Positions 1,553 to 22,676 of a stretch of DNA of 23,534 nt are shown here, piece by piece. Source of the stretch: a virus (lineage: Duplodnaviria > Heunggongvirae > Uroviricota > Caudoviricetes); IMG/VR virus record IMGVR_UViG_2563366895_000003, positions 1 through 23,534 of that record. One strand, 5' to 3'. Position 1 is the first letter of the stretch. Every line of letters begins with the position of its first letter. The translations under genes and the position numbers were made by a program. The notes under the pieces were generated by a model. It was given only the letters and a program-made list of their open reading frames with translations. It did not search any database and was not told the origin of the DNA.

Positions 1553-1741
1553 TCACGAGGACTGAAGTTTCTCGCAATTAAAATTTATCAGTTTTACTTT
1601 CTGCTCTCTGGAAACGCCTGCTTCTTTTTTACCTGAGAGCATTTTTTCGCATTCTGATTTAGTTAGTTTATATTTTGAATATCTTGTCCAGTTAGTAGGA
1701 GTGCCACCTTCCTTTTCAATAGTAGCGGTAATTTTATACAT
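1553..1741 (-). CDS. ydaC: Small Rac prophage protein YdaC-like, 62 aa
   Basis: ORF in the int-xis-ydaC-lar order. Start chosen at MYKITATIEKEGG with a GGAGGTG Shine-Dalgarno; it overlaps the lar stop by a few nt. Confidence 0.6.
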   Translation of the reverse strand: MYKITATIEKEGGTPTNWTRYSKYKLTKSECEKMLSGKKEAGVSREQKVKLINFNCEKLQSS

Positions 1742-6230: not shown

Positions 6231-6321
6231 AATTATCTCCATTTTCACAAATGAACTTTGTTGATGCGGTGCCTGGTGCCTCCAGGTGACGTTAACCAGT
6301 TAACAATTAACGCCGGATACC

Positions 6322-12833: not shown

Positions 12834-12909
<76 letters not shown>

Positions 12910-12912
12910 TAT

Positions 12913-12987
<75 letters not shown>

Positions 12988-15076: not shown

Positions 15077-16534
15077 ATGAATACATCTCATGTAAGAGTT
15101 GTTACTCATATGTGTGGGTTCCTGGTTTGGCTCTATAGTCTTTCAATGTTGCCACCAATGGTTGTAGCATTGTTTTATAAAGAAAAAAGCCTGTTCGTTT
15201 TCTTTATAACCTTCGTTATATTTTTTTGCATTGGTGGCGGAGCGTGGTATACAACTAAGAAATCTGGCATTCAATTACGTACCCGTGATGGGTTTATTAT
15301 AATTGTAATGTTTTGGATTTTGTTTTCTGTTATTAGTGCATTCCCTTTATGGATTGACTCAGAACTTAATTTAACGTTCATTGATGCTCTTTTTGAAGGG
15401 GTTTCTGGAATAACAACAACAGGAGCAACTGTAATTGATGATGTTAGTTCATTACCTCGGGCATATTTGTACTATCGGTCACAGTTAAATTTTATAGGTG
15501 GTTTAGGAGTTATTGTTCTGGCGGTTGCTGTATTGCCATTATTGGGTATTGGTGGTGCAAAGCTTTATCAGTCAGAAATGCCGGGGCCATTTAAGGATGA
15601 CAAACTCACTCCCCGCCTGGCCGATACGTCACGGACACTGTGGATAACTTATTCTTTATTAGGTATTGCTTGTATTGTCTGTTATAGACTTGCAGGAATG
15701 CCTTTGTTTGATGCTATTTGTCACGGGATTTCCACAGTTTCGCTTGGTGGTTTCTCAACTCATAGCGAGAGTATCGGATATTTTAATAACTATTTGGTTG
15801 AGCTGGTGGCTGGTTCTTTTTCCCTGCTATCGGCTTTCAACTTCACTCTTTGGTATATTGTTATTAGCAGGAAAACGATAAAGCCTTTAATCAGAGATAT
15901 TGAACTTCGTTTCTTTCTGTTAATAGCCTTAGTGGTGATCATTGTTACCTCTTTCCAGGTCTGGCATATAGGTATGTATGACTTGCATGGAAGTTTTATT
16001 CATTCGTTTTTTCTTGCCAGCTCCATGCTCACTGATAATGGTTTAGCTACGCAGGATTATGCAAACTGGCCCACGCACACGATAGTGTTTTTGCTGTTGT
16101 CAAGTTTCTTTGGGGGATGTATAGGTTCAACTTGTGGTGGAATTAAGTCACTTCGATTTCTTATACTTTTCAAACAAAGCAAACACGAGATAAATCAGCT
16201 TTCTCATCCCAGAGCGTTGTTGAGTGTAAATGTAGGAGGGAAGATAGTTACAGATCGTGTAATGAGGTCTGTATGGAGTTTCTTTTTTCTTTATACTCTC
16301 TTCACGGTGTTTTTTATACTGGTGTTAAATGGTATGGGATATGATTTTCTTACATCATTTGCAACAGTGGCTGCATGTATTAATAATATGGGATTAGGTT
16401 TTGGGGCTACTGCATCGTCATTCGGAGTGCTTAATGACATTGCAAAATATTTAATGTGCATAGCTATGATTCTTGGTCGCCTTGAAATTTATCCTGTTAT
16501 TATATTGTTTTCAGGTTTTTTTTGGCGCTCCTAA
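15077..16534 (+). CDS. trkG: Trk-system K+ uptake membrane protein TrkG, 485 aa
   Basis: Polytopic membrane protein; translation from MNTSHVRVVTHMCGFLVWLYS matches TrkG as I recall it. Markedly AT-rich, no obvious Shine-Dalgarno, TATAAT-like boxes at 15026-15031 and 15054-15059. Confidence 0.88.
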   Translation: MNTSHVRVVTHMCGFLVWLYSLSMLPPMVVALFYKEKSLFVFFITFVIFFCIGGGAWYTTKKSGIQLRTRDGFIIIVMFWILFSVISAFPLWIDSELNLTFIDALFEGVSGITTTGATVIDDVSSLPRAYLYYRSQLNFIGGLGVIVLAVAVLPLLGIGGAKLYQSEMPGPFKDDKLTPRLADTSRTLWITYSLLGIACIVCYRLAGMPLFDAICHGISTVSLGGFSTHSESIGYFNNYLVELVAGSFSLLSAFNFTLWYIVISRKTIKPLIRDIELRFFLLIALVVIIVTSFQVWHIGMYDLHGSFIHSFFLASSMLTDNGLATQDYANWPTHTIVFLLLSSFFGGCIGSTCGGIKSLRFLILFKQSKHEINQLSHPRALLSVNVGGKIVTDRVMRSVWSFFFLYTLFTVFFILVLNGMGYDFLTSFATVAACINNMGLGFGATASSFGVLNDIAKYLMCIAMILGRLEIYPVIILFSGFFWRS

Positions 16535-16620
16535 TATATGGCTGATTTATAATTGTGAGTTTAATATTATATTGACTCACTCATTGATCCAATACCTAAC
16601 TTTACCAGCAACACCTCCGC

Positions 16621-16656
16621 CCCCAGTAGCACTGGCTGCTGGGGTGCGTTTTATTC
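16621..16656 (+). terminator. Terminator candidate downstream of trkG
   Basis: Stem CCCCAG ... CTGGGG followed by TGCGTTTTATTC; the T-run is interrupted. Confidence 0.4.
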
Positions 16657-16671
16657 ATAAAGCAAGGCTGT

Positions 16672-17259
16672 ATGAGCGAGAAATTAAAGATAGTCTATCG
16701 CCCATTACAAGAATTGTCACCGTATGCGCACAACGCCAGGACGCACAGTACTGAGCAGGTGGCACAACTGGTAGAAAGTATTAAGCAATTCGGCTGGACT
16801 AATCCGGTGCTGATTGACGAAAAGGGCGAAATTATTGCGGGTCACGGTCGTGTTATGGCGGCTGAAATGCTCAAAATGGATTCTGTTCCGGTCATTGTTC
16901 TGTCTGGCCTGACGGATGAGCAGAAAAAGGCGTACCGCTTGGCAGATAATCGCCTACCGATGAATGCTGGCTGGGATGAAGATCTGTTGCGGATGGAGCT
17001 GTCGGTCCTAATCAATGCTGATTTTGATGTCTCCCTGACAGGCTTCGGCCCGACAGAAATTGATGAACTGTTGACGGATGTTTTGCCCGGTACAGGAAAT
17101 AAGGAGGAGCCGTATACGACGAAAATTGATACGCCTGTTTATGAGCCGTCGGGCGGTAAACCGGATATCAGTGAACTGTACGACGATACGAAAACTCAGG
17201 AGCTGATCAGCCGGATACGTTCGGCGTCCCTTGAACCCGCCAGTAAAAGATCGCGTTAA
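16672..17259 (+). CDS. ParB-like nuclease-domain protein (YnaK-like), 195 aa
   Basis: ParB N-terminal-domain-type motifs (GHGRVMAA ... KKAYRLADN) with an acidic C-terminal tail; lies immediately upstream of the terminase remnant. Confidence 0.65.
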   Translation: MSEKLKIVYRPLQELSPYAHNARTHSTEQVAQLVESIKQFGWTNPVLIDEKGEIIAGHGRVMAAEMLKMDSVPVIVLSGLTDEQKKAYRLADNRLPMNAGWDEDLLRMELSVLINADFDVSLTGFGPTEIDELLTDVLPGTGNKEEPYTTKIDTPVYEPSGGKPDISELYDDTKTQELISRIRSASLEPASKRSR

Positions 17260-17488
17260 CTCAATGAATGCAATGTTCTGCAATGCCAATGGTGAGCGTC
17301 GCTATAAAGTTAATGTGAAGCGTTGTCCGGTATATGCCGAATCACTGGAGCAACAGGTCTGGGATGATAAGGGGGAGCCTGATAAAAAATCTGGCAATGA
17401 TCACCCGAATGATGCCGGAGGTTATTTCATCGTTAAGCAATTCCCTATTGTCAAACCGACCGGAAGAGTCACATCACTTCGGATTTAA
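17231..17488 (+). pseudogene. Terminase large-subunit C-terminal remnant (YdaY-like), ~85 codons
   Basis: Short ORF overlapping the 3' end of the ParB-like gene and ending 3 nt before the putative portal start; call is by position and a weak C-terminal resemblance (GNDHPNDAGGYF). Confidence 0.4.
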
Positions 17489-17490
17489 TT

Positions 17491-18897
17491 ATGGCTGATA
17501 TATCAACACCCAACCTCGACTATAACGATATGCTGGAAGCGTGGGATATTAACGACGCATTGATGGGCGGTACGCTTGAAATGCGCAGGCAGGGGGAAAA
17601 TTATCTCCCCAAATGGCCTAATGAAGATGAAGACGCTTATAAAAAACGCCTGTCTGTGGCTACGCTACTTCCTGTGTATGAAGAAAGCATCAAACAAAAT
17701 ATTGGGCGCATATTTGCAGAGCCGACAGTATTGAGTGAGGAAACGCCGGAAAAAATCAGGGAATATGCAGAAAATATCGACATGGAGGGGAGCCGACTGG
17801 ATGTGTGGGCGCAGCAATTTTTCAGTCTCGCATTTCAGTATGGTGTGGCACATGCGCTGGTGGACTATCCACGAACGGATATGAACGAGATTCGGACAAA
17901 AGCCGATGAAAACGCGGCCGGTGGTCGCCCGTACGTTACGATGCTGAATCCACGCCAGGTTATTGGATGGAAATCGAAAGTTGAAAAAGGGAAAGTTGTT
18001 CTCACTGATTTGCGTATAAAAGAGGTCATCATTATTGATGGTGATGATTTCGGGCAGAAGAAGGTGGAGCAGATCCGCCATATTATGCCCCGTCGAGTAG
18101 AAATTTATCGACGCAGCGAAGGTACTAATGGCGAATCTGTCTGGATGCTTCATGAGTCATGGAATACCAGCCGTGATGATATTCCTCTGGTAACACTGTA
18201 TACGAAGAAAACAGGGTTTATGCGTGGTACACCGCCATTGCTTAATCTTGGCTTGCTGAATATCAAGCACTGGCAAAGCCAGAGCGAGCAGGACAATATT
18301 CTTCATGTTGCCCGCGTTCCATTGCTGGTGGCCTACGGGCTGGACAGGAATGAAGAACTGACGGTTGGTGCATCCACCGCTACGATTTTTGAGGACAGAA
18401 CAAAAAATGGCCTCGAATATGTTGAACATAGTGGCGCAGCGATAGAATCTGGCGAAACATCACTTGAGAAGCTGGAAAATCAGATGCGTCATGCCGGCGC
18501 TAAACTTCTGCGGGCTGAAAATACATCCACCAAATCTGTTGATCAGACTAATGAAGAGCGGATGCAGGAACACTCGCCGCTTTATACAATGGCGAACTCC
18601 CTCGAAGATGCCCTCGATAATATTCTCCAGATAATGGCGGAATGGAGCGGAGAGAGTTGCGGTGGCAATGTGGATGTGCGCACTGAACTGGATGTATCTG
18701 CCCAGGTGTTTGACTCATCCTCCGCGCTGGCTGTTCAGTCATTGCGTCAGGGCGGTGATATACGTCAGATTGATGCGGTTCGGGTGTTGCAGGCGTTGAA
18801 ATTTATCGATCAGGATTCCCGTCCAGAGGAAGTGATCGATGAATTAAAAAATCAGAGTGTAATGCTGATGGAAATCAATGATGCAAACCGTGAATGA
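17491..18897 (+). CDS. Putative phage portal protein (positional call), 468 aa
   Basis: Large ORF directly after the terminase remnant and overlapping the next ORF; size and acidic C-terminus are compatible with a portal. No motif-level confirmation. Confidence 0.5.
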   Translation: MADISTPNLDYNDMLEAWDINDALMGGTLEMRRQGENYLPKWPNEDEDAYKKRLSVATLLPVYEESIKQNIGRIFAEPTVLSEETPEKIREYAENIDMEGSRLDVWAQQFFSLAFQYGVAHALVDYPRTDMNEIRTKADENAAGGRPYVTMLNPRQVIGWKSKVEKGKVVLTDLRIKEVIIIDGDDFGQKKVEQIRHIMPRRVEIYRRSEGTNGESVWMLHESWNTSRDDIPLVTLYTKKTGFMRGTPPLLNLGLLNIKHWQSQSEQDNILHVARVPLLVAYGLDRNEELTVGASTATIFEDRTKNGLEYVEHSGAAIESGETSLEKLENQMRHAGAKLLRAENTSTKSVDQTNEERMQEHSPLYTMANSLEDALDNILQIMAEWSGESCGGNVDVRTELDVSAQVFDSSSALAVQSLRQGGDIRQIDAVRVLQALKFIDQDSRPEEVIDELKNQSVMLMEINDANRE

Positions 18898-19813
18898 ACG
18901 GCTGCGTGATGAATCAATTGCTCATGCAGTCTGGATATCCCGCTATAGCACTGGTGTGGCTGCCAGAATGGTGAAGATACTGAATGACAGCGATGCGGAG
19001 CTTACAGCTCGCCTGCTGGTAGCACTGGACAGCCTCGATCCTGGTAGTTTTACCGTTACGCGCCTGGAGTCACTTCTGGCGAGTGTCAGAGAGGTTAACG
19101 GGGCTAAAGCGCAGGCGCTCACTATCAACAGGAATGAGGTTAACTCAACCGTTGATTTAACCCTTACAAAGCAATCAGGGACTGGCAATCGTTTTGTTTT
19201 ACAGAACTCAGGTAATGCAGAACTACCGTTTTCTGTCAGGGTGTGGGGTTCCAGTACTCGACAAAACGTTTTTGAGGTTGGAACGTCTGCTGCGTATCTG
19301 TTTTATGCTCAAAAAACATCTTCAGGTCAGCTGTTTGATGTAAACGGTGCTATTAACTGTACAACACTGAATCAGTTATCAGACCGCGAGCTGAAAGACA
19401 ATATTCAGATTATCAGTGACGCAACCGAAGCTATCCGTAAAATGAACGGGTACACCTACACACTTAAGGAAAACGGACTACCTTACGCTGGTGTTATTGC
19501 ACAGGAAGCAATGGAGGCAATACCGGAAGCGGTAGGCTCATTCACTCATTACGGTAAAGAGTTGCAGGGACCAACGGTTGACGGCAATGAATTACGTGAA
19601 GAAACACGTTATCTGAATGTTGACTACGCCGCCGTGACGGGGTTACTTGTTCAGGTCGCCCGTGAAACAGATGATCGCGTTACCGCGCTGGAAGAGGAAA
19701 ATACAACGTTACGTGAAAATCTGGCAACAGCAGGCACCCGGATCACCACTCTGGAAAATCAGGTAAGCGAACTGGTTGCACTTGTCCGGCAGTTAACAGG
19801 AAGCGAACATTGA
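18878..19813 (+). CDS. Chimeric ORF ending in a tail-fibre/tailspike C-terminal intramolecular chaperone (Peptidase S74-like) domain, 311 aa
   Basis: C-terminal half carries LSDRELKDNI ... NGYTYTLKENGLPYAGVIAQEAMEAIPEAV, which I recall as the self-cleaving chaperone motif of fibre proteins. The N-terminal ~90 aa look unrelated to a fibre shaft. Confidence 0.65.
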   Translation: MMQTVNERLRDESIAHAVWISRYSTGVAARMVKILNDSDAELTARLLVALDSLDPGSFTVTRLESLLASVREVNGAKAQALTINRNEVNSTVDLTLTKQSGTGNRFVLQNSGNAELPFSVRVWGSSTRQNVFEVGTSAAYLFYAQKTSSGQLFDVNGAINCTTLNQLSDRELKDNIQIISDATEAIRKMNGYTYTLKENGLPYAGVIAQEAMEAIPEAVGSFTHYGKELQGPTVDGNELREETRYLNVDYAAVTGLLVQVARETDDRVTALEEENTTLRENLATAGTRITTLENQVSELVALVRQLTGSEH

Positions 19814-19852
19814 TATCCTTCAAGCCCTGAAGGAGGCTGTTCCTGGTACGTT

Positions 19853-19996
19853 CAGACTGTTGTTGAGCTGGAGATCGCAACGGAGGAAGAAACCTTGTTG
19901 CTGGAAGCCTGGAAAAAGTATCGGGTGTTGCTGAACCGTGTTGATACATCAACTGCACCTGATATTGAGTGGCCTGCTGTCCCTGTTATGGAGTAA
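19853..19996 (+). pseudogene. Tail fibre assembly protein (Tfa) C-terminal remnant, ~47 codons
   Basis: Reads ...[43 protein letters not shown], in the same frame as and directly after the TGA of the preceding ORF. Resembles Tfa C-termini as I recall them; no start codon of its own. Confidence 0.5.
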
Positions 19997-20011
19997 TCGT
20001 TTTGAGATACG

Positions 20012-20047
20012 CCGCATACACGTTGTATGCAATAACGTGCTGCGGCT
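20012..20047. repeat. Left copy of a 36-bp imperfect direct repeat that is also a palindromic stem-loop
   Basis: CCGCATACACGTTGTATGCAATAACGTGCTGCGGCT; 32 of 36 positions identical to the copy at 22482-22517. Internal stems GCCGCA/TGCGGC and CACGTT/AACGTG. Confidence 0.6.
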
Positions 20048-20099
20048 TGGTAAATTTTAGCTAGTTTCAGCAGGAGACATAAAAAACTTCAATATAAGA

Positions 20100-20888
20100 T
20101 TAAGCATCACGTATTGCCAATCTGATTTTTGACTGATACCAATTGGGGCCTTCTGCAATTATTTCTTCCTCAACATGCATGATGGGATGCATTTCAATTT
20201 CAGAGTTTTTGACTTTCAGATCTAGTCCATGTTTTTTTGAAATTTGTAAAACTTCATTTTTGAAATCCTTATCTGCGAAAGGTGAAATCCTTATTTCTTC
20301 CAACAGATTATTAAGAGATACAGGGACTAGTTTTCCCTTTACAGGTGGAGTGTTAAAGGTATTCTCTTGAAAAATAGCTCTAAACTCTTTTTCGTATTCG
20401 AAAGATGGTCTCTTGTTAAAGAATACATCTGATTCTGGATTGTATTGTTTTATCCAGAAATTTTTGACGTATTTTACGTGTTTTAATTGTAGTTTGTTTA
20501 GATTATTATTTTCAAGTTGGCTTTGGAGGTTTTTTTTCTTTGATTTTATGACAACGCCTTTAGCGGGGTTTTTACAATACAGCTTCCACATAGCTTCAGA
20601 TTCATGTTCGTTACAATGCCAGCAACTTATATATGTCCTCTCGCTTATTTCCTTAAGTGTCTTTAAATTGAATGCCATGAAAGGATCTAAGTCCATGCCG
20701 GCACCATAAGTAGCGCATAGTTTTTCCTGTGTCTCAATGAATTTTTTATAGCCAGTATGTCCCCAAGCAAATTCACCTTCGAACGGATCTTCAAAATTTT
20801 TTGCTGAGCAAAAAAATAAAGCATTTTGTTCGAGTAACATAGAGAATTTCTCTATGTCAAGGTATCGCCATATATACTCAGTGTGCAT
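20100..20888 (-). CDS. DUF2971-family protein, 262 aa, very AT-rich
   Basis: AAGGAG Shine-Dalgarno 5 nt before the ATG at 20888. N-terminal IWRYLDIEKFSMLLEQNALFFCSAKNFEDPFEGEF, then ISCWHCNEHESEAMWKLYC and LKHVKYV, matching the DUF2971 pattern as I recall it. Confidence 0.7.
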   Translation of the reverse strand: MHTEYIWRYLDIEKFSMLLEQNALFFCSAKNFEDPFEGEFAWGHTGYKKFIETQEKLCATYGAGMDLDPFMAFNLKTLKEISERTYISCWHCNEHESEAMWKLYCKNPAKGVVIKSKKKNLQSQLENNNLNKLQLKHVKYVKNFWIKQYNPESDVFFNKRPSFEYEKEFRAIFQENTFNTPPVKGKLVPVSLNNLLEEIRISPFADKDFKNEVLQISKKHGLDLKVKNSEIEMHPIMHVEEEIIAEGPNWYQSKIRLAIRDA

Positions 20889-21017
20889 GATAGCTCCTTG
20901 CAATATAACTATTTCTATCTGTTCATTTGTACTTAAAAAGGATTGAGTAGCCTGAACAGTTCTATCCGTAAATATACCAGATAGAAGAGTTGTACAATAA
21001 CAAATCCTCCGTATAAG

Positions 21018-21056
21018 AACCAGCCATAATAGTCTGGTTCTTAAGGTTTTTTTTGT
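21018..21056 (+). other. Stem-loop GAACCAG-N10-CTGGTTC followed by a plus-strand T8 run, between the two cassette genes
   Basis: Read directly. Terminator-like for plus-strand (antisense) transcription only; on the coding strand it is preceded by an A-run, not followed by a U-run. Confidence 0.4.
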
Positions 21057-21101
21057 TCTAGGGGGGGTTAACCTACGATTCGTCCCCATATCGACGATAA
21101 A

Positions 21102-22304
21102 TCAGGCCTGTACCAACGCTTCTGTTTCTGTGAGTGAAATCTGATAGCGTTTTACTGCCTCAGCAAAGGCGTGCGCGGCATCTGCATTTGATACCATATA
21201 TTCTTCAGTTACCCCTGTTTGAGAATGGAAAGTAATATTTCCATAAATGCAAATAGGGATTTGGTAGTTATCTTTAAAACGACGGTCTGGTGAGCCATTC
21301 TTATTCGTTTTCGCCCATGTATAACCATCTATGCGTGAGTCACTGGGAACACCTTCTTCCTCATGGAATCTTAGATATTCTGAACTAATTTGTAATTCGC
21401 GTAAATCAATCAGAGCGAATGCTCCATCAGCTCGTGGTATGACTGCAACTCCAGGATAAAGCAAAATATCGTCTCCATTCACATTTTCAAACCTCATCGC
21501 ACGCCCTGTAAATTGAATGAGATCCGTTGAACTAAAATCAAAGGTAACTGGGTGACGATTAACAGACCGGGTTGCTAATGTTCTTTCAGCAAACTGGTCT
21601 GTAGCTTTATCTGCAGTAATATCCCATTTTTTGACACTCGATTTTAACATATCAAATGCATGGACCATCGCTGCATATGCGCGCTGTGAAGCATCACTGC
21701 TCTCGAATGTTATGGCTATTTTTGTGCTGTCTTCCCATGAAACTAGGCGAGATATCTCAGCTTGGGTTAGGGGGAGTAGTGTCTCAAGTTCTGCGATGCG
21801 TCGTTTGTAAAACCAACGGAATAGACTTGATTTGCGTCGAGCCAACTCGCTTTTTTGTTTTGATTCTTCGGCAAGAGCCTCTTGAAGATCTGCTTTTATT
21901 TCTGCTCTTTGTTCTCGTGCTTTAGCAATCAAATCTCGTAAAGGTAAAAGGGAGGTACTTGTAAGGACTTCTACCGAAGCGCTGGATATTTCATTCATGC
22001 CAGCTACAGGCATATATATTTTAGCGTTCGATGGTGTATTTTCTGGAGATGACCCAGACCCCAAATGAGGTTCTGTAGGGGCTGGATTTAATGGATTGGT
22101 AACTGAGTATCCATCATCATAGGGCAAGGTAGGTGTAGTATAAGATAAGCCTGTGCCCGGTAATCCGACAGTTGCTCTAACCCCTTTTTTACCAACATTG
22201 ACAGTTGCGCCAGGCACGCCAATGCTTGCACTTATTCCACGCTTGCCAATGTTGAGTCGAACGCCAGGAAATAGAGTAAAGGTTTGTCTGAAACGAAGAG
22301 ACAT
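21102..22304 (-). CDS. DUF4236 N-terminal-domain protein with coiled-coil middle and unassigned C-terminal domain, 400 aa
   Basis: N-terminal FTLFPGVRLNIGKRGISASIGVPGATVNVGKKGVRATVGLPGTGLSYTT is the Gly/basic DUF4236-type repeat pattern as I recall it; a coiled-coil-like stretch follows; C-terminal ~200 aa unrecognised. Confidence 0.7.
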   Translation of the reverse strand: MSLRFRQTFTLFPGVRLNIGKRGISASIGVPGATVNVGKKGVRATVGLPGTGLSYTTPTLPYDDGYSVTNPLNPAPTEPHLGSGSSPENTPSNAKIYMPVAGMNEISSASVEVLTSTSLLPLRDLIAKAREQRAEIKADLQEALAEESKQKSELARRKSSLFRWFYKRRIAELETLLPLTQAEISRLVSWEDSTKIAITFESSDASQRAYAAMVHAFDMLKSSVKKWDITADKATDQFAERTLATRSVNRHPVTFDFSSTDLIQFTGRAMRFENVNGDDILLYPGVAVIPRADGAFALIDLRELQISSEYLRFHEEEGVPSDSRIDGYTWAKTNKNGSPDRRFKDNYQIPICIYGNITFHSQTGVTEEYMVSNADAAHAFAEAVKRYQISLTETEALVQA

Positions 22305-22430
22305 AAAGTTATCCCTATGTAGTTTTGTACACCAAAGTTCGAAATGTTTTTATATGAATATTGAGCTGATTCGTAAGATTATTCCTAGCTCATCTTCATT
22401 CCGCCATGATACAACGGTTTGCTTGCAGGT

Positions 22431-22468
22431 GAAGAAAAACGAAAAAGCCCAATCATGATTGGTGGGCT
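22431..22468 (-). terminator. Rho-independent terminator of the sit operon
   Basis: On the minus strand: stem AGCCCA ... TGGGCT around a palindromic ATCATGAT centre, followed by TTTTTCGTTTTTC. Confidence 0.55.
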
Positions 22469-22481
22469 GGTGGAGTTGAAA

Positions 22482-22517
22482 CCGCAGACACGTCATATGC
22501 AAAAACGTGCTGCGGCT
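22482..22517. repeat. Right copy of the 36-bp imperfect direct repeat/stem-loop
   Basis: CCGCAGACACGTCATATGCAAAAACGTGCTGCGGCT; the four differences from the left copy fall in the loop or bulge positions, leaving both stems intact. Confidence 0.6.
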
Positions 22518-22676
22518 AACTGGTGAACTTTCGATAGTGCGGGTATTGAATGATTTCTAGGCGTTATCGATTTTACGTATTTTTTGCATGATAGAATTCG
22601 TACCTCCTCCCAACGACCTTCCATGGCTTTCCGGACTTCTGTAGGCCGGCGGACGATGTTGTCCTCGGATGTTGTG

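Follow-up and report, generated by a model that had tools for sequence, protein, structure and literature searches.

A head-fibre gene fusion and probable deletion scars in the collapsed morphogenesis region of a Rac-family prophage from one Escherichia coli clone

Genes and Features at the Locus

The DNA analysed here, referred to as the window, is a stretch of 23,534 nt (IMG/VR record IMGVR_UViG_2563366895_000003). It represents an entire Rac-type prophage at ttcA and is 100% identical to E. coli WL164. The RefSeq annotation of the identical record shows a Rac prophage on the ttcA side, with the genes intR, xisR, recET, kilR, trkG, and ynaK, followed by sitABCD, and an Rfam search of the window detected the RalA sRNA. 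Integration beside ttcA and the intR-xisR-ralR-recET-kilR ... trkG-ynaK backbone place the element in the Rac family. With the cryptic prophage Rac of K-12 and Rac-like prophages at ttcA it shares the site, intR, xisR, ralR/RalA, recET, kilR, the lysis genes, trkG, and ynaK. As in K-12 Rac, morphogenesis genes have been lost, which makes the prophage defective. The deletion pattern differs, however, since only the tail of terL, the portal gene, and a fusion of head and fibre genes are left in the window. The two also differ in the side fibre (S74 type in the window, StfR/TfaR in K-12 Rac), in the immunity region racR-ydaSTU, which is also deleted in the window prophage, and in the right arm, where the window carries DUF2971/DUF4236 genes and sitABCD. 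The cargo adjoining the portal and the fusion includes PDC-S31, a candidate defence gene. Independent decay of the same prophage type was observed in EcPF15, where the portal gene has been joined to the gene for the tape measure and the tail genes contain an IS element.

As reference we used L003, a structurally complete Rac-like prophage from strain 7.1994/NIST0056. A blastn comparison of the window with L003 returned three collinear blocks (98.8%, 99.9%, and 89.9% identity), which meet at two junctions, designated J1 and J2. The features are listed in Table 1. A preliminary description of this DNA had reported a head and tail gene set collapsed to about 2.7 kb; all of the elements that it named were found in place, with scores far above chance.

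Table 1. Features of the collapsed morphogenesis region, in window positions.
Feature	Position	Strand	Evidence
ParB/YnaK-like ORF, 195 aa, cut by J1	16672..17259	+	ParB_N and phrog_620 matches
Junction J1	17230..17234	.	blastn and three-way alignment against L003
Large terminase remnant, last ~85 of 433 codons, part of the RNaseH-like nuclease domain	17230..17488	+	
Intact portal, 468 aa, DUF4055	17491..18897	+	phrog_145
Chimeric ORF, 311 aa	18878..19813	+	Native start of the minor head gene
Head-derived segment, chimera residues 1-74, Mu-F-type minor head N-terminus	18878..19099	+	
Junction J2	19094..19099	.	Three-block blastn and alignment against L003
Fibre-derived segment, chimera residues 73-311, last 239 residues of an S74-type side tail fibre	19094..19813	+	
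Peptidase_S74 core, chimera residues 168-219	19379..19534	+	PF13884
Spacer and Tfa remnant (older than the collapse)	19814..19996	+	Caudo_TAP, lambda tfa homology

Junction J1 and the Terminase Remnant

Relative to L003, J1 is a deletion of 3,464 bp (L003 16539-19997) that leads from the ParB-like gene into terL, out of frame. The genes lost are those for a TET-associated glycosyltransferase, a small ORF, and terS, along with the ~348 codons at the start of terL. At this joint the microhomology is imperfect (T[T/C]GA). The ParB-like ORF of the relative encodes 262 aa, and the window ORF departs from it after ...RSASL: agreement with that ORF extends over about 186 residues, and the final ~9 codons come from terminase DNA, read in another frame. 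PGAP annotates the ParB-like gene as a pseudogene. This upstream junction is the true second deletion of the collapse and had been missed in the preliminary description.

The terminase remnant recognised earlier was recovered with both profile collections: window positions 17231-17488 matched positions 91-154 of 155 of the Pfam profile Terminase_6C (E = 2.7e-6) and positions 148-227 of 228 of phrog_10250, terminase large subunit (E = 3.3e-27). The parent TerL carries both the Terminase_6N and 6C domains; in the Pfam and PHROG searches the remnant had no ATPase domain and an incomplete nuclease domain and does not qualify as a large terminase. It has no real start, an 85-aa "ORF" beginning with TTG being the reading frame of the remnant and not a gene, and PGAP labels it a pseudogene.

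The portal, previously called putative, is intact. It aligned with phrog_145 over residues 1-467 (profile positions 7-481 of 493, E = 4.5e-165), which amounts to full length, had a match to DUF4055 (E = 7e-45), and is the same protein as in the structurally complete prophage (RefSeq WP_000763709.1).

Junction J2 and the Parents of the Chimeric ORF

The 5' end of the 311-aa ORF overlaps the 3' end of the portal gene by 20 nt; the PGAP version starts at 18881 and has 310 aa (WP_244599421.1). The breakpoint, the parent genes, and the frame could be read directly from the alignments. At J2, the reading frame passes without a break from codon 74 of the minor head gene into codon 894 of a 1,132-codon side tail fibre gene, and the joint lies at a perfect 6-nt microhomology (GTTAAC). 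The junction is a deletion of 19,174 bp relative to L003 (L003 21868-41035), a figure that refers to a proxy because the exact undeleted parent is found in none of the complete E. coli genomes.

On the head side, residues 2-76 agree with the start of the L003 minor head protein at 74 of 75 positions (99%), the DNA at 19000-19099 is 100% identical to the minor head gene, and residues 1-80 matched phrog_241, head morphogenesis (E = 3e-26). As in the Mu F/SPP1 gp7-type minor head protein of the intact prophage, the first 74 residues, the gene position, and the overlap with the portal stop are all present. Unlike these proteins, however, the chimera does not have the defining Mu F domain: the domain spans residues 153-273 of the parent protein in a Pfam search and is deleted from the chimera, in which PF04233 had no match.

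On the fibre side, residues 73-311 are 87% identical to residues 671-909 of the fibre of another prophage (L007), and residues 72-298 matched phrog_6578, tail fibre (E = 6e-112). The fibre segment is composed of one knob-like domain (residues ~75-166), the S74 intramolecular chaperone domain, and a coiled coil at the C-terminus. Structures of the T4 gp34 fibre (4uxe, 5nxf) can be aligned to residues 111-166. No meaningful match to the chimera, the portal, or the remnants came from an NCBIfam scan.

The preliminary description had proposed that an internal deletion fused distant genes, and that the N-terminus sits where a head-morphogenesis gene overlapping the portal would be expected. Both proposals hold. 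The N-terminus that it considered unknown is that of the minor head protein, and the breakpoint lies at residue 73/74 in the alignments to both parents, not at about residue 100. The outcome that it had named as a refutation, an N-terminus aligning to the same tail-fibre proteins as the C-terminus, did not occur: the first 74 residues show no alignment to fibre proteins.

The S74 Chaperone Domain

The C-terminus had been assigned a self-cleaving chaperone domain of the S74 type. In agreement with this, PF13884 matched with 51.9 bits (cut-off 22; E = 9e-14) over profile positions 1-57 of 58. The motif SDRELK aligns with SDRRIK of PDB 6f45 and contains the putative nucleophile Ser168 (19379-19381) with Lys173 (19394-19396) five residues on, the same spacing as Ser1264 and Lys1269 in T5 pb1 (PMC4690869).

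Compared with S74 fibres and spikes (the K1F endosialidase, T5 pb1, and the side fibres of mEp460 and Ayreon), the C-terminal 239 residues of the chimera are collinear, and the PF13884 domain, the Ser-x4-Lys motif, and the C-terminal coiled coil are in common. In contrast to these proteins, the chimera does not have the ~890 N-terminal residues that include the virion-attachment domain and carries 74 head-protein residues instead. Neither an N-terminal virion-attachment domain nor a long trimeric shaft was found in it; just 95 fibre residues precede Ser168, and the parent fibres comprise 909-1,204 aa. Because the attachment domain is gone and head-protein residues have taken its place, the chimera cannot be a virion fibre. 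An AF2 run on the single chimera sequence gave a poor model, with a mean pLDDT of 44.5 and confidence only in the C-terminal helix.

If the chimera were transcribed and translated, its complete C-terminal chaperone domain would probably trimerise, and cleavage between Leu167 and Ser168 would probably follow, releasing an N-terminal fragment of 167 residues and a chaperone fragment of 144 residues. By analogy with T5 pb1, the chimera may be capable of self-cleavage: the N-terminally truncated pb1(970-1396) retains both folding and self-cleavage in E. coli, the latter via Ser1264/Lys1269 (PMC4690869). Counting against this capacity, the reaction depends on a properly folded trimer ahead of the serine, where the chimera offers ~95 fibre residues fused to foreign sequence.

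The Tfa Remnant

A Tfa C-terminus had been noticed behind the TGA of the chimera, in the same frame, and had been taken to suggest a second junction. The homology is real: the 60 codons past the TGA (19814-19993), read in the frame of the chimera, matched positions 87-130 of 131 of Caudo_TAP (PF02413; E = 7e-20). Homology to the 3' DNA of lambda tfa begins at ~19851, and the pseudogene annotated by PGAP covers 19862-19996. The remnant DNA is 91% identical to lambda 22412-22606 (lambda tfa occupies 21973-22557). When compared with lambda Tfa (orf-194) and the tfa pseudogene fragments of E. coli prophages, it consists of the last ~146 nt of tfa and 49 nt of downstream DNA. Unlike lambda Tfa, it keeps profile positions 87-130 only, which is not a full-length Tfa domain, and no start codon was found between the TGA and the Tfa homology.

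The second junction did not stand. The same succession of fibre stop, 48 nt, and 135-nt remnant was found in other prophages (L003/L005, L006, L007, and L014) and in phage mEp460; full-length prophages at three other chromosomal sites have the scar with the same spacing and frame, as does the mEp460 genome, and phage Ayreon has a similar match. Because full-length prophages and mEp460 have the same arrangement, the remnant is not a junction of this collapse. It pre-dates the collapse and is, from its distribution, a much older scar. The shared reading frame is an inherited coincidence without significance. Read-through of the TGA into the remnant was also considered and was rejected, because the stop, the spacer, and the frame are the same behind full-length fibres and in mEp460.

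In the window, the remnant adjoins a fibre end that needs no separate Tfa, and the mEp460 genome carries the same state. We suggest that in an ancestral lambdoid phage a fibre end of the S74 type, with its own chaperone, replaced an Stf/Tfa end through a crossover that left the last ~48 codons of tfa, and that this scar has since moved along with the fibre cassette.

Distribution

Queries across J1 (221 nt) and across J2 were each covered in one of 5,426 complete genomes. At least 18 draft contigs, which come from independent NCBI assemblies, share this architecture, as does KTE203. These contigs have the gene order trkG-ParB-portal-chimera-DUF2971-DUF4236-sitDCBA and encode the exact chimera protein. 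Six of the loci were read, and they differ from the window by 0-2 mismatches (99.89-100% identity); for five of them the comparison spans 8.3-8.5 kb. The carriers are one clone, in which the locus is inherited clonally. Because they are near-identical and belong to one clone, the intactness of the ORFs tells nothing about selection, and we rejected it as evidence for selection.

Discussion

The reduction of the head and tail genes to 2.7 kb by two deletions is ordinary prophage decay and not a new system. We consider it very probable that the region as a whole is a set of scars left by deletion in a Rac-family prophage at ttcA that is decaying, immobilised, and confined to one E. coli clone. 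Two illegitimate recombination events at very short microhomologies would have removed ~22.6 kb of the late operon. The event at J1 would have attached the 3' part of the ParB-like gene to the 85-codon end of terL in a different frame; that at J2 would have joined the minor head gene to the side fibre gene and, by a one-in-three chance, have kept the frame and produced the ORF of 311 codons. The portal gene, sitting between the two deletions, would have been left untouched.

The history of the region may also include module exchange. The nearest match to the right-hand module (96% identity) lies at another chromosomal site, yejM/tRNA-Pro. We consider it unlikely, though less so than the other alternatives, that J2 was itself made during import of the fibre end and the cargo from a lambdoid prophage of this type, by one homologous and one illegitimate crossover. 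The module from the fibre to DUF4236 is 96-98% identical to the yejM/tRNA-Pro prophage (98.3% for window positions 19800-22578 and 96.0% for 19094-22400), the fibre part is just 90% identical to that of the Rac-like reference, and an undeleted Rac prophage with this module is absent among the complete genomes. However, lambdoid prophages swap fibre ends and downstream cargo routinely, and a swap followed by deletion fits these values equally well. Synteny with sitABCD is kept, and a conserved 36-nt repeat, shared with the Rac-like references, marks the end of the cargo. Both histories lead to one and the same product, which is interpreted as a scar in either case.

Because the Mu F domain and the virion-attachment N-terminus of the fibre are missing, the chimera could serve neither as a head protein nor as a fibre, and it is most likely a functionless by-product. 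We regard it as improbable that the portal and the chimera form a functional minimal module, either of a satellite-like or domesticated element with a repurposed fibre tip, or as a poison against superinfection, which would act by co-trimerising with the near-identical S74 fibres of superinfecting lambdoid phages or by competing for the receptor. Neither ORF is disrupted in any member of the clone, but with near-zero divergence this is uninformative. The chimera has the native translation signals of the minor head gene, its start among them, along with a complete chaperone domain; yet a promoter scan returned sites at chance level only. The same scan placed one terminator-like hairpin between trkG and the ParB-like gene. 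A free fibre-tip fragment of T5 blocks infection by competition (PMC4690869), but a fibre tip in the cytoplasm could not compete for a surface receptor unless it were released. The candidate defence gene PDC-S31 lies in the adjacent cargo, yet PADLOC matched neither the portal nor the chimera. In addition, the flanking DNA matches an ordinary prophage at 99.9% identity, nothing beyond microhomology marks the joints, and the architecture is limited to one clone. More doubtful still is the specific proposal that the chimera, if made, is a dominant-negative subunit that co-trimerises with the S74 side fibres (87-95% identical) of lambdoid phages, whether these superinfect the host or share it. 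If this were true, trimers without attachment domains would lower the infectivity of the progeny, and the scar would be an accidental anti-phage gene kept by the clone.

That the 311-aa ORF is a fibre gene truncated at its 5' end, with an N-terminus that is also fibre-derived, is refuted by the junction alignment and by the separate parents of its two halves. RefSeq names the protein only by its tail fibre domain, and phrog_5481 (tail fibre) formally aligns across residues 14-308 (E = 2e-22), but significant alignment to fibre proteins begins only at residue 73, and the first 74 residues match the minor head protein at the identities given above. Just as little can be said for both junctions being assembly artefacts of a collapsed or mis-joined prophage: each occurs in a single complete genome, but the identical architecture recurs across independent assemblies, which refutes this reading.

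The finding matters little outside annotation. The RefSeq label "tail fiber domain-containing protein" omits the head-gene origin of the first 74 residues, so that domain-based surveys of prophages or receptor-binding proteins could miscount the chimera. A Tfa fragment behind an S74 fibre should be read as a travelling scar of the fibre cassette and not be taken for local decay. J1 and J2 together provide a handy marker for this E. coli clone, and the locus offers a clean, datable case in which microhomology deletions immobilise a prophage while its cargo (trkG, sitABCD, and the candidate defence gene) stays.

Prophage identity and backbone

In a megablast search of 5,426 complete E. coli genomes, the WL164 chromosome was the sole full-length, 100% identical match to positions 16500-20100. 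According to the RefSeq annotation of the WL164 record, the window is an entire Rac-type prophage adjoining ttcA. The annotated order is intR, xisR, ralR, recT, recE, kilR, a ydaV remnant, queH, DUF1367/1364/1133, tRNA-Thr and tRNA-Gly, essD-rrrD-Rz, trkG, and pseudogenes of ynaK and the terminase; the right end holds a DUF4055 protein, a "tail fiber domain-containing protein", a tail fibre assembly pseudogene, DUF2971, DUF4236, and sitD. The sRNA RalA, antitoxin of the ralR/RalA type I toxin-antitoxin system, and the two tRNA genes are ordinary Rac-family features.

Coordinates of features in the window and of the collinear blastn blocks in the Rac-like reference prophage
Feature	Window (strand)	Reference	Details
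RalA sRNA	1557-1735		212 bits (Rfam)
Immunity region deletion joint	~6309-6319		~3.5 kb lost; ~5 nt overlap
tRNA-Thr, tRNA-Gly	12834-12984		Between Q-like gene and lysis cassette (Rfam, RefSeq)
Block 1	16400-17234	15704-16538	98.8% identity
Terminator-like hairpin	16621-16644		10-bp stem, 7 GC pairs, then T-rich tail
ParB-like ORF	16672-17259		
Block 2	17230-19099	19998-21867	99.9% identity
Terminase remnant	17231-17488		Nuclease-domain end only: Terminase_6C 91-154 of 155; phrog_10250, E 3e-27
Antisense ORF	17665-18153 (-)		162 aa
Portal			468 aa, full length; DUF4055; phrog_145, E 4.5e-165
Chimera	18878-19813 (+)		311 aa; overlaps portal end by 20 nt
Block 3	19094-19931	41036-41873	89.9% identity
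Palindrome, copy 1	20012-20047		36 nt
Cargo gene	20100-21089 (-)		Low GC, ~0.35 (pair)
Cargo gene	21102-22304 (-)		Low GC, ~0.35 (pair)
Palindrome, copy 2	22482-22517		89% identical to copy 1

Deletion junctions

We used a structurally complete Rac-like prophage (strain 7.1994/NIST0056) as a proxy for the undeleted parent. After trkG and ynaK, this reference carries a TET-associated glycosyltransferase, a small ORF, terS, terL, portal, a minor head gene, scaffold/capsid genes, and tail genes, ending with J, lom, a 1,132-aa side fibre, and a Tfa pseudogene. In a blastn comparison, window 16400-20200 resolved into three collinear blocks, and three-way alignments at the joints defined two deletions. 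The first, J1, removed 3,464 bp at an imperfect microhomology (T[T/C]GA) and is out of frame: the ParB-like ORF runs nine foreign codons past the joint to a stop at 17259, and the terL tail behind it has no genuine start. The second, J2, removed 19,174 bp at a perfect microhomology (GTTAAC), joins the minor head gene to the S74 side fibre, and keeps the frame of both parents. The preliminary description was thus correct in proposing an internal deletion that fused distant genes.

Each element that it had listed (terminase remnant, portal, chimeric ORF, and Tfa piece) is present by profile matches. The portal is the only complete family member in the region, while the terminase and Tfa remnants are too partial to count as members of their families. 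RefSeq has no annotation at the ORF antisense to the portal, which is probably spurious.

The PADLOC MTase_II profile (E 3e-38) and the phrog_498 DNA methyltransferase family both align, through their N-terminal regions, with the ParB-like ORF. Among the reference genes removed by J1, the glycosyltransferase (16757-17689; PF20691, E 4e-35) lies between the ParB-like gene and terS. Together, these matches hint that a DNA-modification module, now decayed, lay upstream of the packaging genes.

With the EcPF15 prophage as reference, a third deletion removed ydaF, racR, ydaS, ydaT, and ydaU between kilR and a 5'-truncated ydaV. The immunity region is therefore deleted, the repressor and its controlled toxins having been lost together.

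Distribution of the junctions

Each 221-nt query spanning J1 or J2 was covered in just one of the 5,426 complete genomes. By exact look-up, the 311-aa chimera was found on three contigs (e.g., KTE203), and its 310-aa form on 19. Eighteen contigs were examined for gene context; at the six loci displayed, the common order, within contig reach, is trkG, ParB, portal, chimera, DUF2971, DUF4236, sitDCBA, uspF, and ompN. These loci differ from the window by 0-2 mismatches (99.89-100% identity), and five of them span 8.3-8.5 kb. This near-identity on further contigs rules out misassembly as the source of the junctions; it also makes the intactness of the ORFs uninformative on selection. The architecture is real, inherited, and restricted to one clone. 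The EcPF15 prophage, of the same type, decayed independently (20173-33725 of its locus): ParB is joined with a remnant of terS, the portal and tape measure genes are fused, ISEc31 lies among the tail assembly genes, and the fibre genes are broken into fragments, with sitABCD still at the right end.

The Tfa scar

The 60 codons past the TGA of the chimera share its frame and match Caudo_TAP (87-130 of 131, E 7e-20). A fibre stop, 48 nt, and then a pseudogene annotated "tail fiber assembly protein, missing N-terminus" (135 nt; 159 nt in 7.1994/NIST0056) also follow full-length S74 fibres in four other prophages: the Rac-like reference and those on the ompT side, at the yejM/tRNA-Pro site, and upstream of the ykgL-ykgM-fdeC region. 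Window 19060-20120 is at least 80% covered in 671 genomes. In phage mEp460, whose side fibre has 1,202 aa, the match extends 160 nt beyond the fibre stop, and phages Ayreon and PhiR70_1 are similar at the scar. The DNA from 19851 onward is 91% identical to lambda 22412-22606, which comprises the last ~146 nt of tfa (21973-22557) and 49 nt downstream.

An S74 fibre end brings its own chaperone and does not need Tfa. The simplest reading is an ancestral crossover inside tfa, by which an S74-type fibre end would have taken the place of a Stf/Tfa-type end; the scar, its coincidental frame included, would then have moved along with the fibre cassette. Because the same layout stands behind full-length fibres in other prophages and phages, the Tfa remnant predates the collapse. 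It had been proposed as a second junction of the collapse; it is a junction, but one foreign to the collapse of this prophage, the real second deletion being J1, upstream.

The right-hand module

The fibre end, Tfa scar, DUF2971, and DUF4236 share 96-98% identity with a prophage located at a different site in the chromosome, against only 90% with the Rac-like reference. Among the complete genomes searched, no undeleted Rac carried this module; the deletion size therefore holds relative to the proxy parent. The module was swapped in either before the deletion or, less likely, together with it.

Against PADLOC, the DUF2971 protein hit PDC-S31, a candidate defence family (E 2.6e-20), and the DUF4236 protein had no match; phrog_34615 also matches the former. 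For one cargo ORF the gene calls disagree (mechanical, 329 aa; RefSeq, 246 aa; other callers, 246-329 aa). An imperfect palindrome, CCGCATACACGTTGTATGCAATAACGTGCTGCGGCT, flanks this 2.4-kb cargo, and likewise the homologous cargo of the prophage at the yejM/tRNA-Pro site. In lambda, the pair flanks ea47, with copies 16 nt past the tfa stop and between ea47 and ea31; in Rac-like relatives whose cargo is Bcr/CflA, only the sitD-side copy is present. The palindrome folds into a hairpin (about -21 kcal/mol) and matched no Rfam family. These palindromes may be the borders of a slot for exchangeable cargo behind lambdoid fibre genes.

Content and possible activity of the chimera

The profile matches of the chimera form two sets, head and fibre, reported as non-overlapping: phrog_241 (head morphogenesis, E 3e-26) covers residues 1-80, and phrog_6578 (tail fibre, E 6e-112) covers residues 72-298, within which Peptidase_S74 occupies 168-219. 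Residues 2-76 are identical to the minor head protein of the reference at 74 of 75 positions, and residues 73-311 correspond over their whole length to the final 239 residues of an S74 side fibre (87% identity to that of the yejM/tRNA-Pro prophage). These alignments place the split at residue 73/74, rather than at about residue 100 as first estimated. A simple truncated fibre would have an N-terminus aligning with fibres; this one is minor head protein.

The chimera keeps the native minor head start, overlapping the portal stop, and lacks the Mu F domain (parent residues 153-273), so it does not classify as a Mu F protein. About 890 fibre residues are missing, the attachment domain included, and the fibre architecture is incomplete. 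One knob-like domain is left; residues 111-166 align with T4 gp34 fibre structures. The entire S74 domain is retained, with the motif S168-D-R-E-L-K173, as is a C-terminal coiled coil, the only part modelled confidently by AF2. Fragment 970-1396 of T5 pb1 folds and self-cleaves in E. coli via Ser1264/Lys1269, which requires correct trimer formation upstream (PMC4690869). By analogy with T5 pb1, the chimera might form trimers and cleave itself between L167 and S168.

A promoter scan found no signal above chance. The hairpin that follows the trkG stop and precedes the ParB-like gene could reduce read-through into what is left of the late genes. With promoter signals at chance level, this hairpin after trkG, and the immunity region deleted, expression of the chimera is uncertain. 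The chimera is most likely an inert by-product, and the locus adds one more decayed cryptic prophage to the well-known Rac family.
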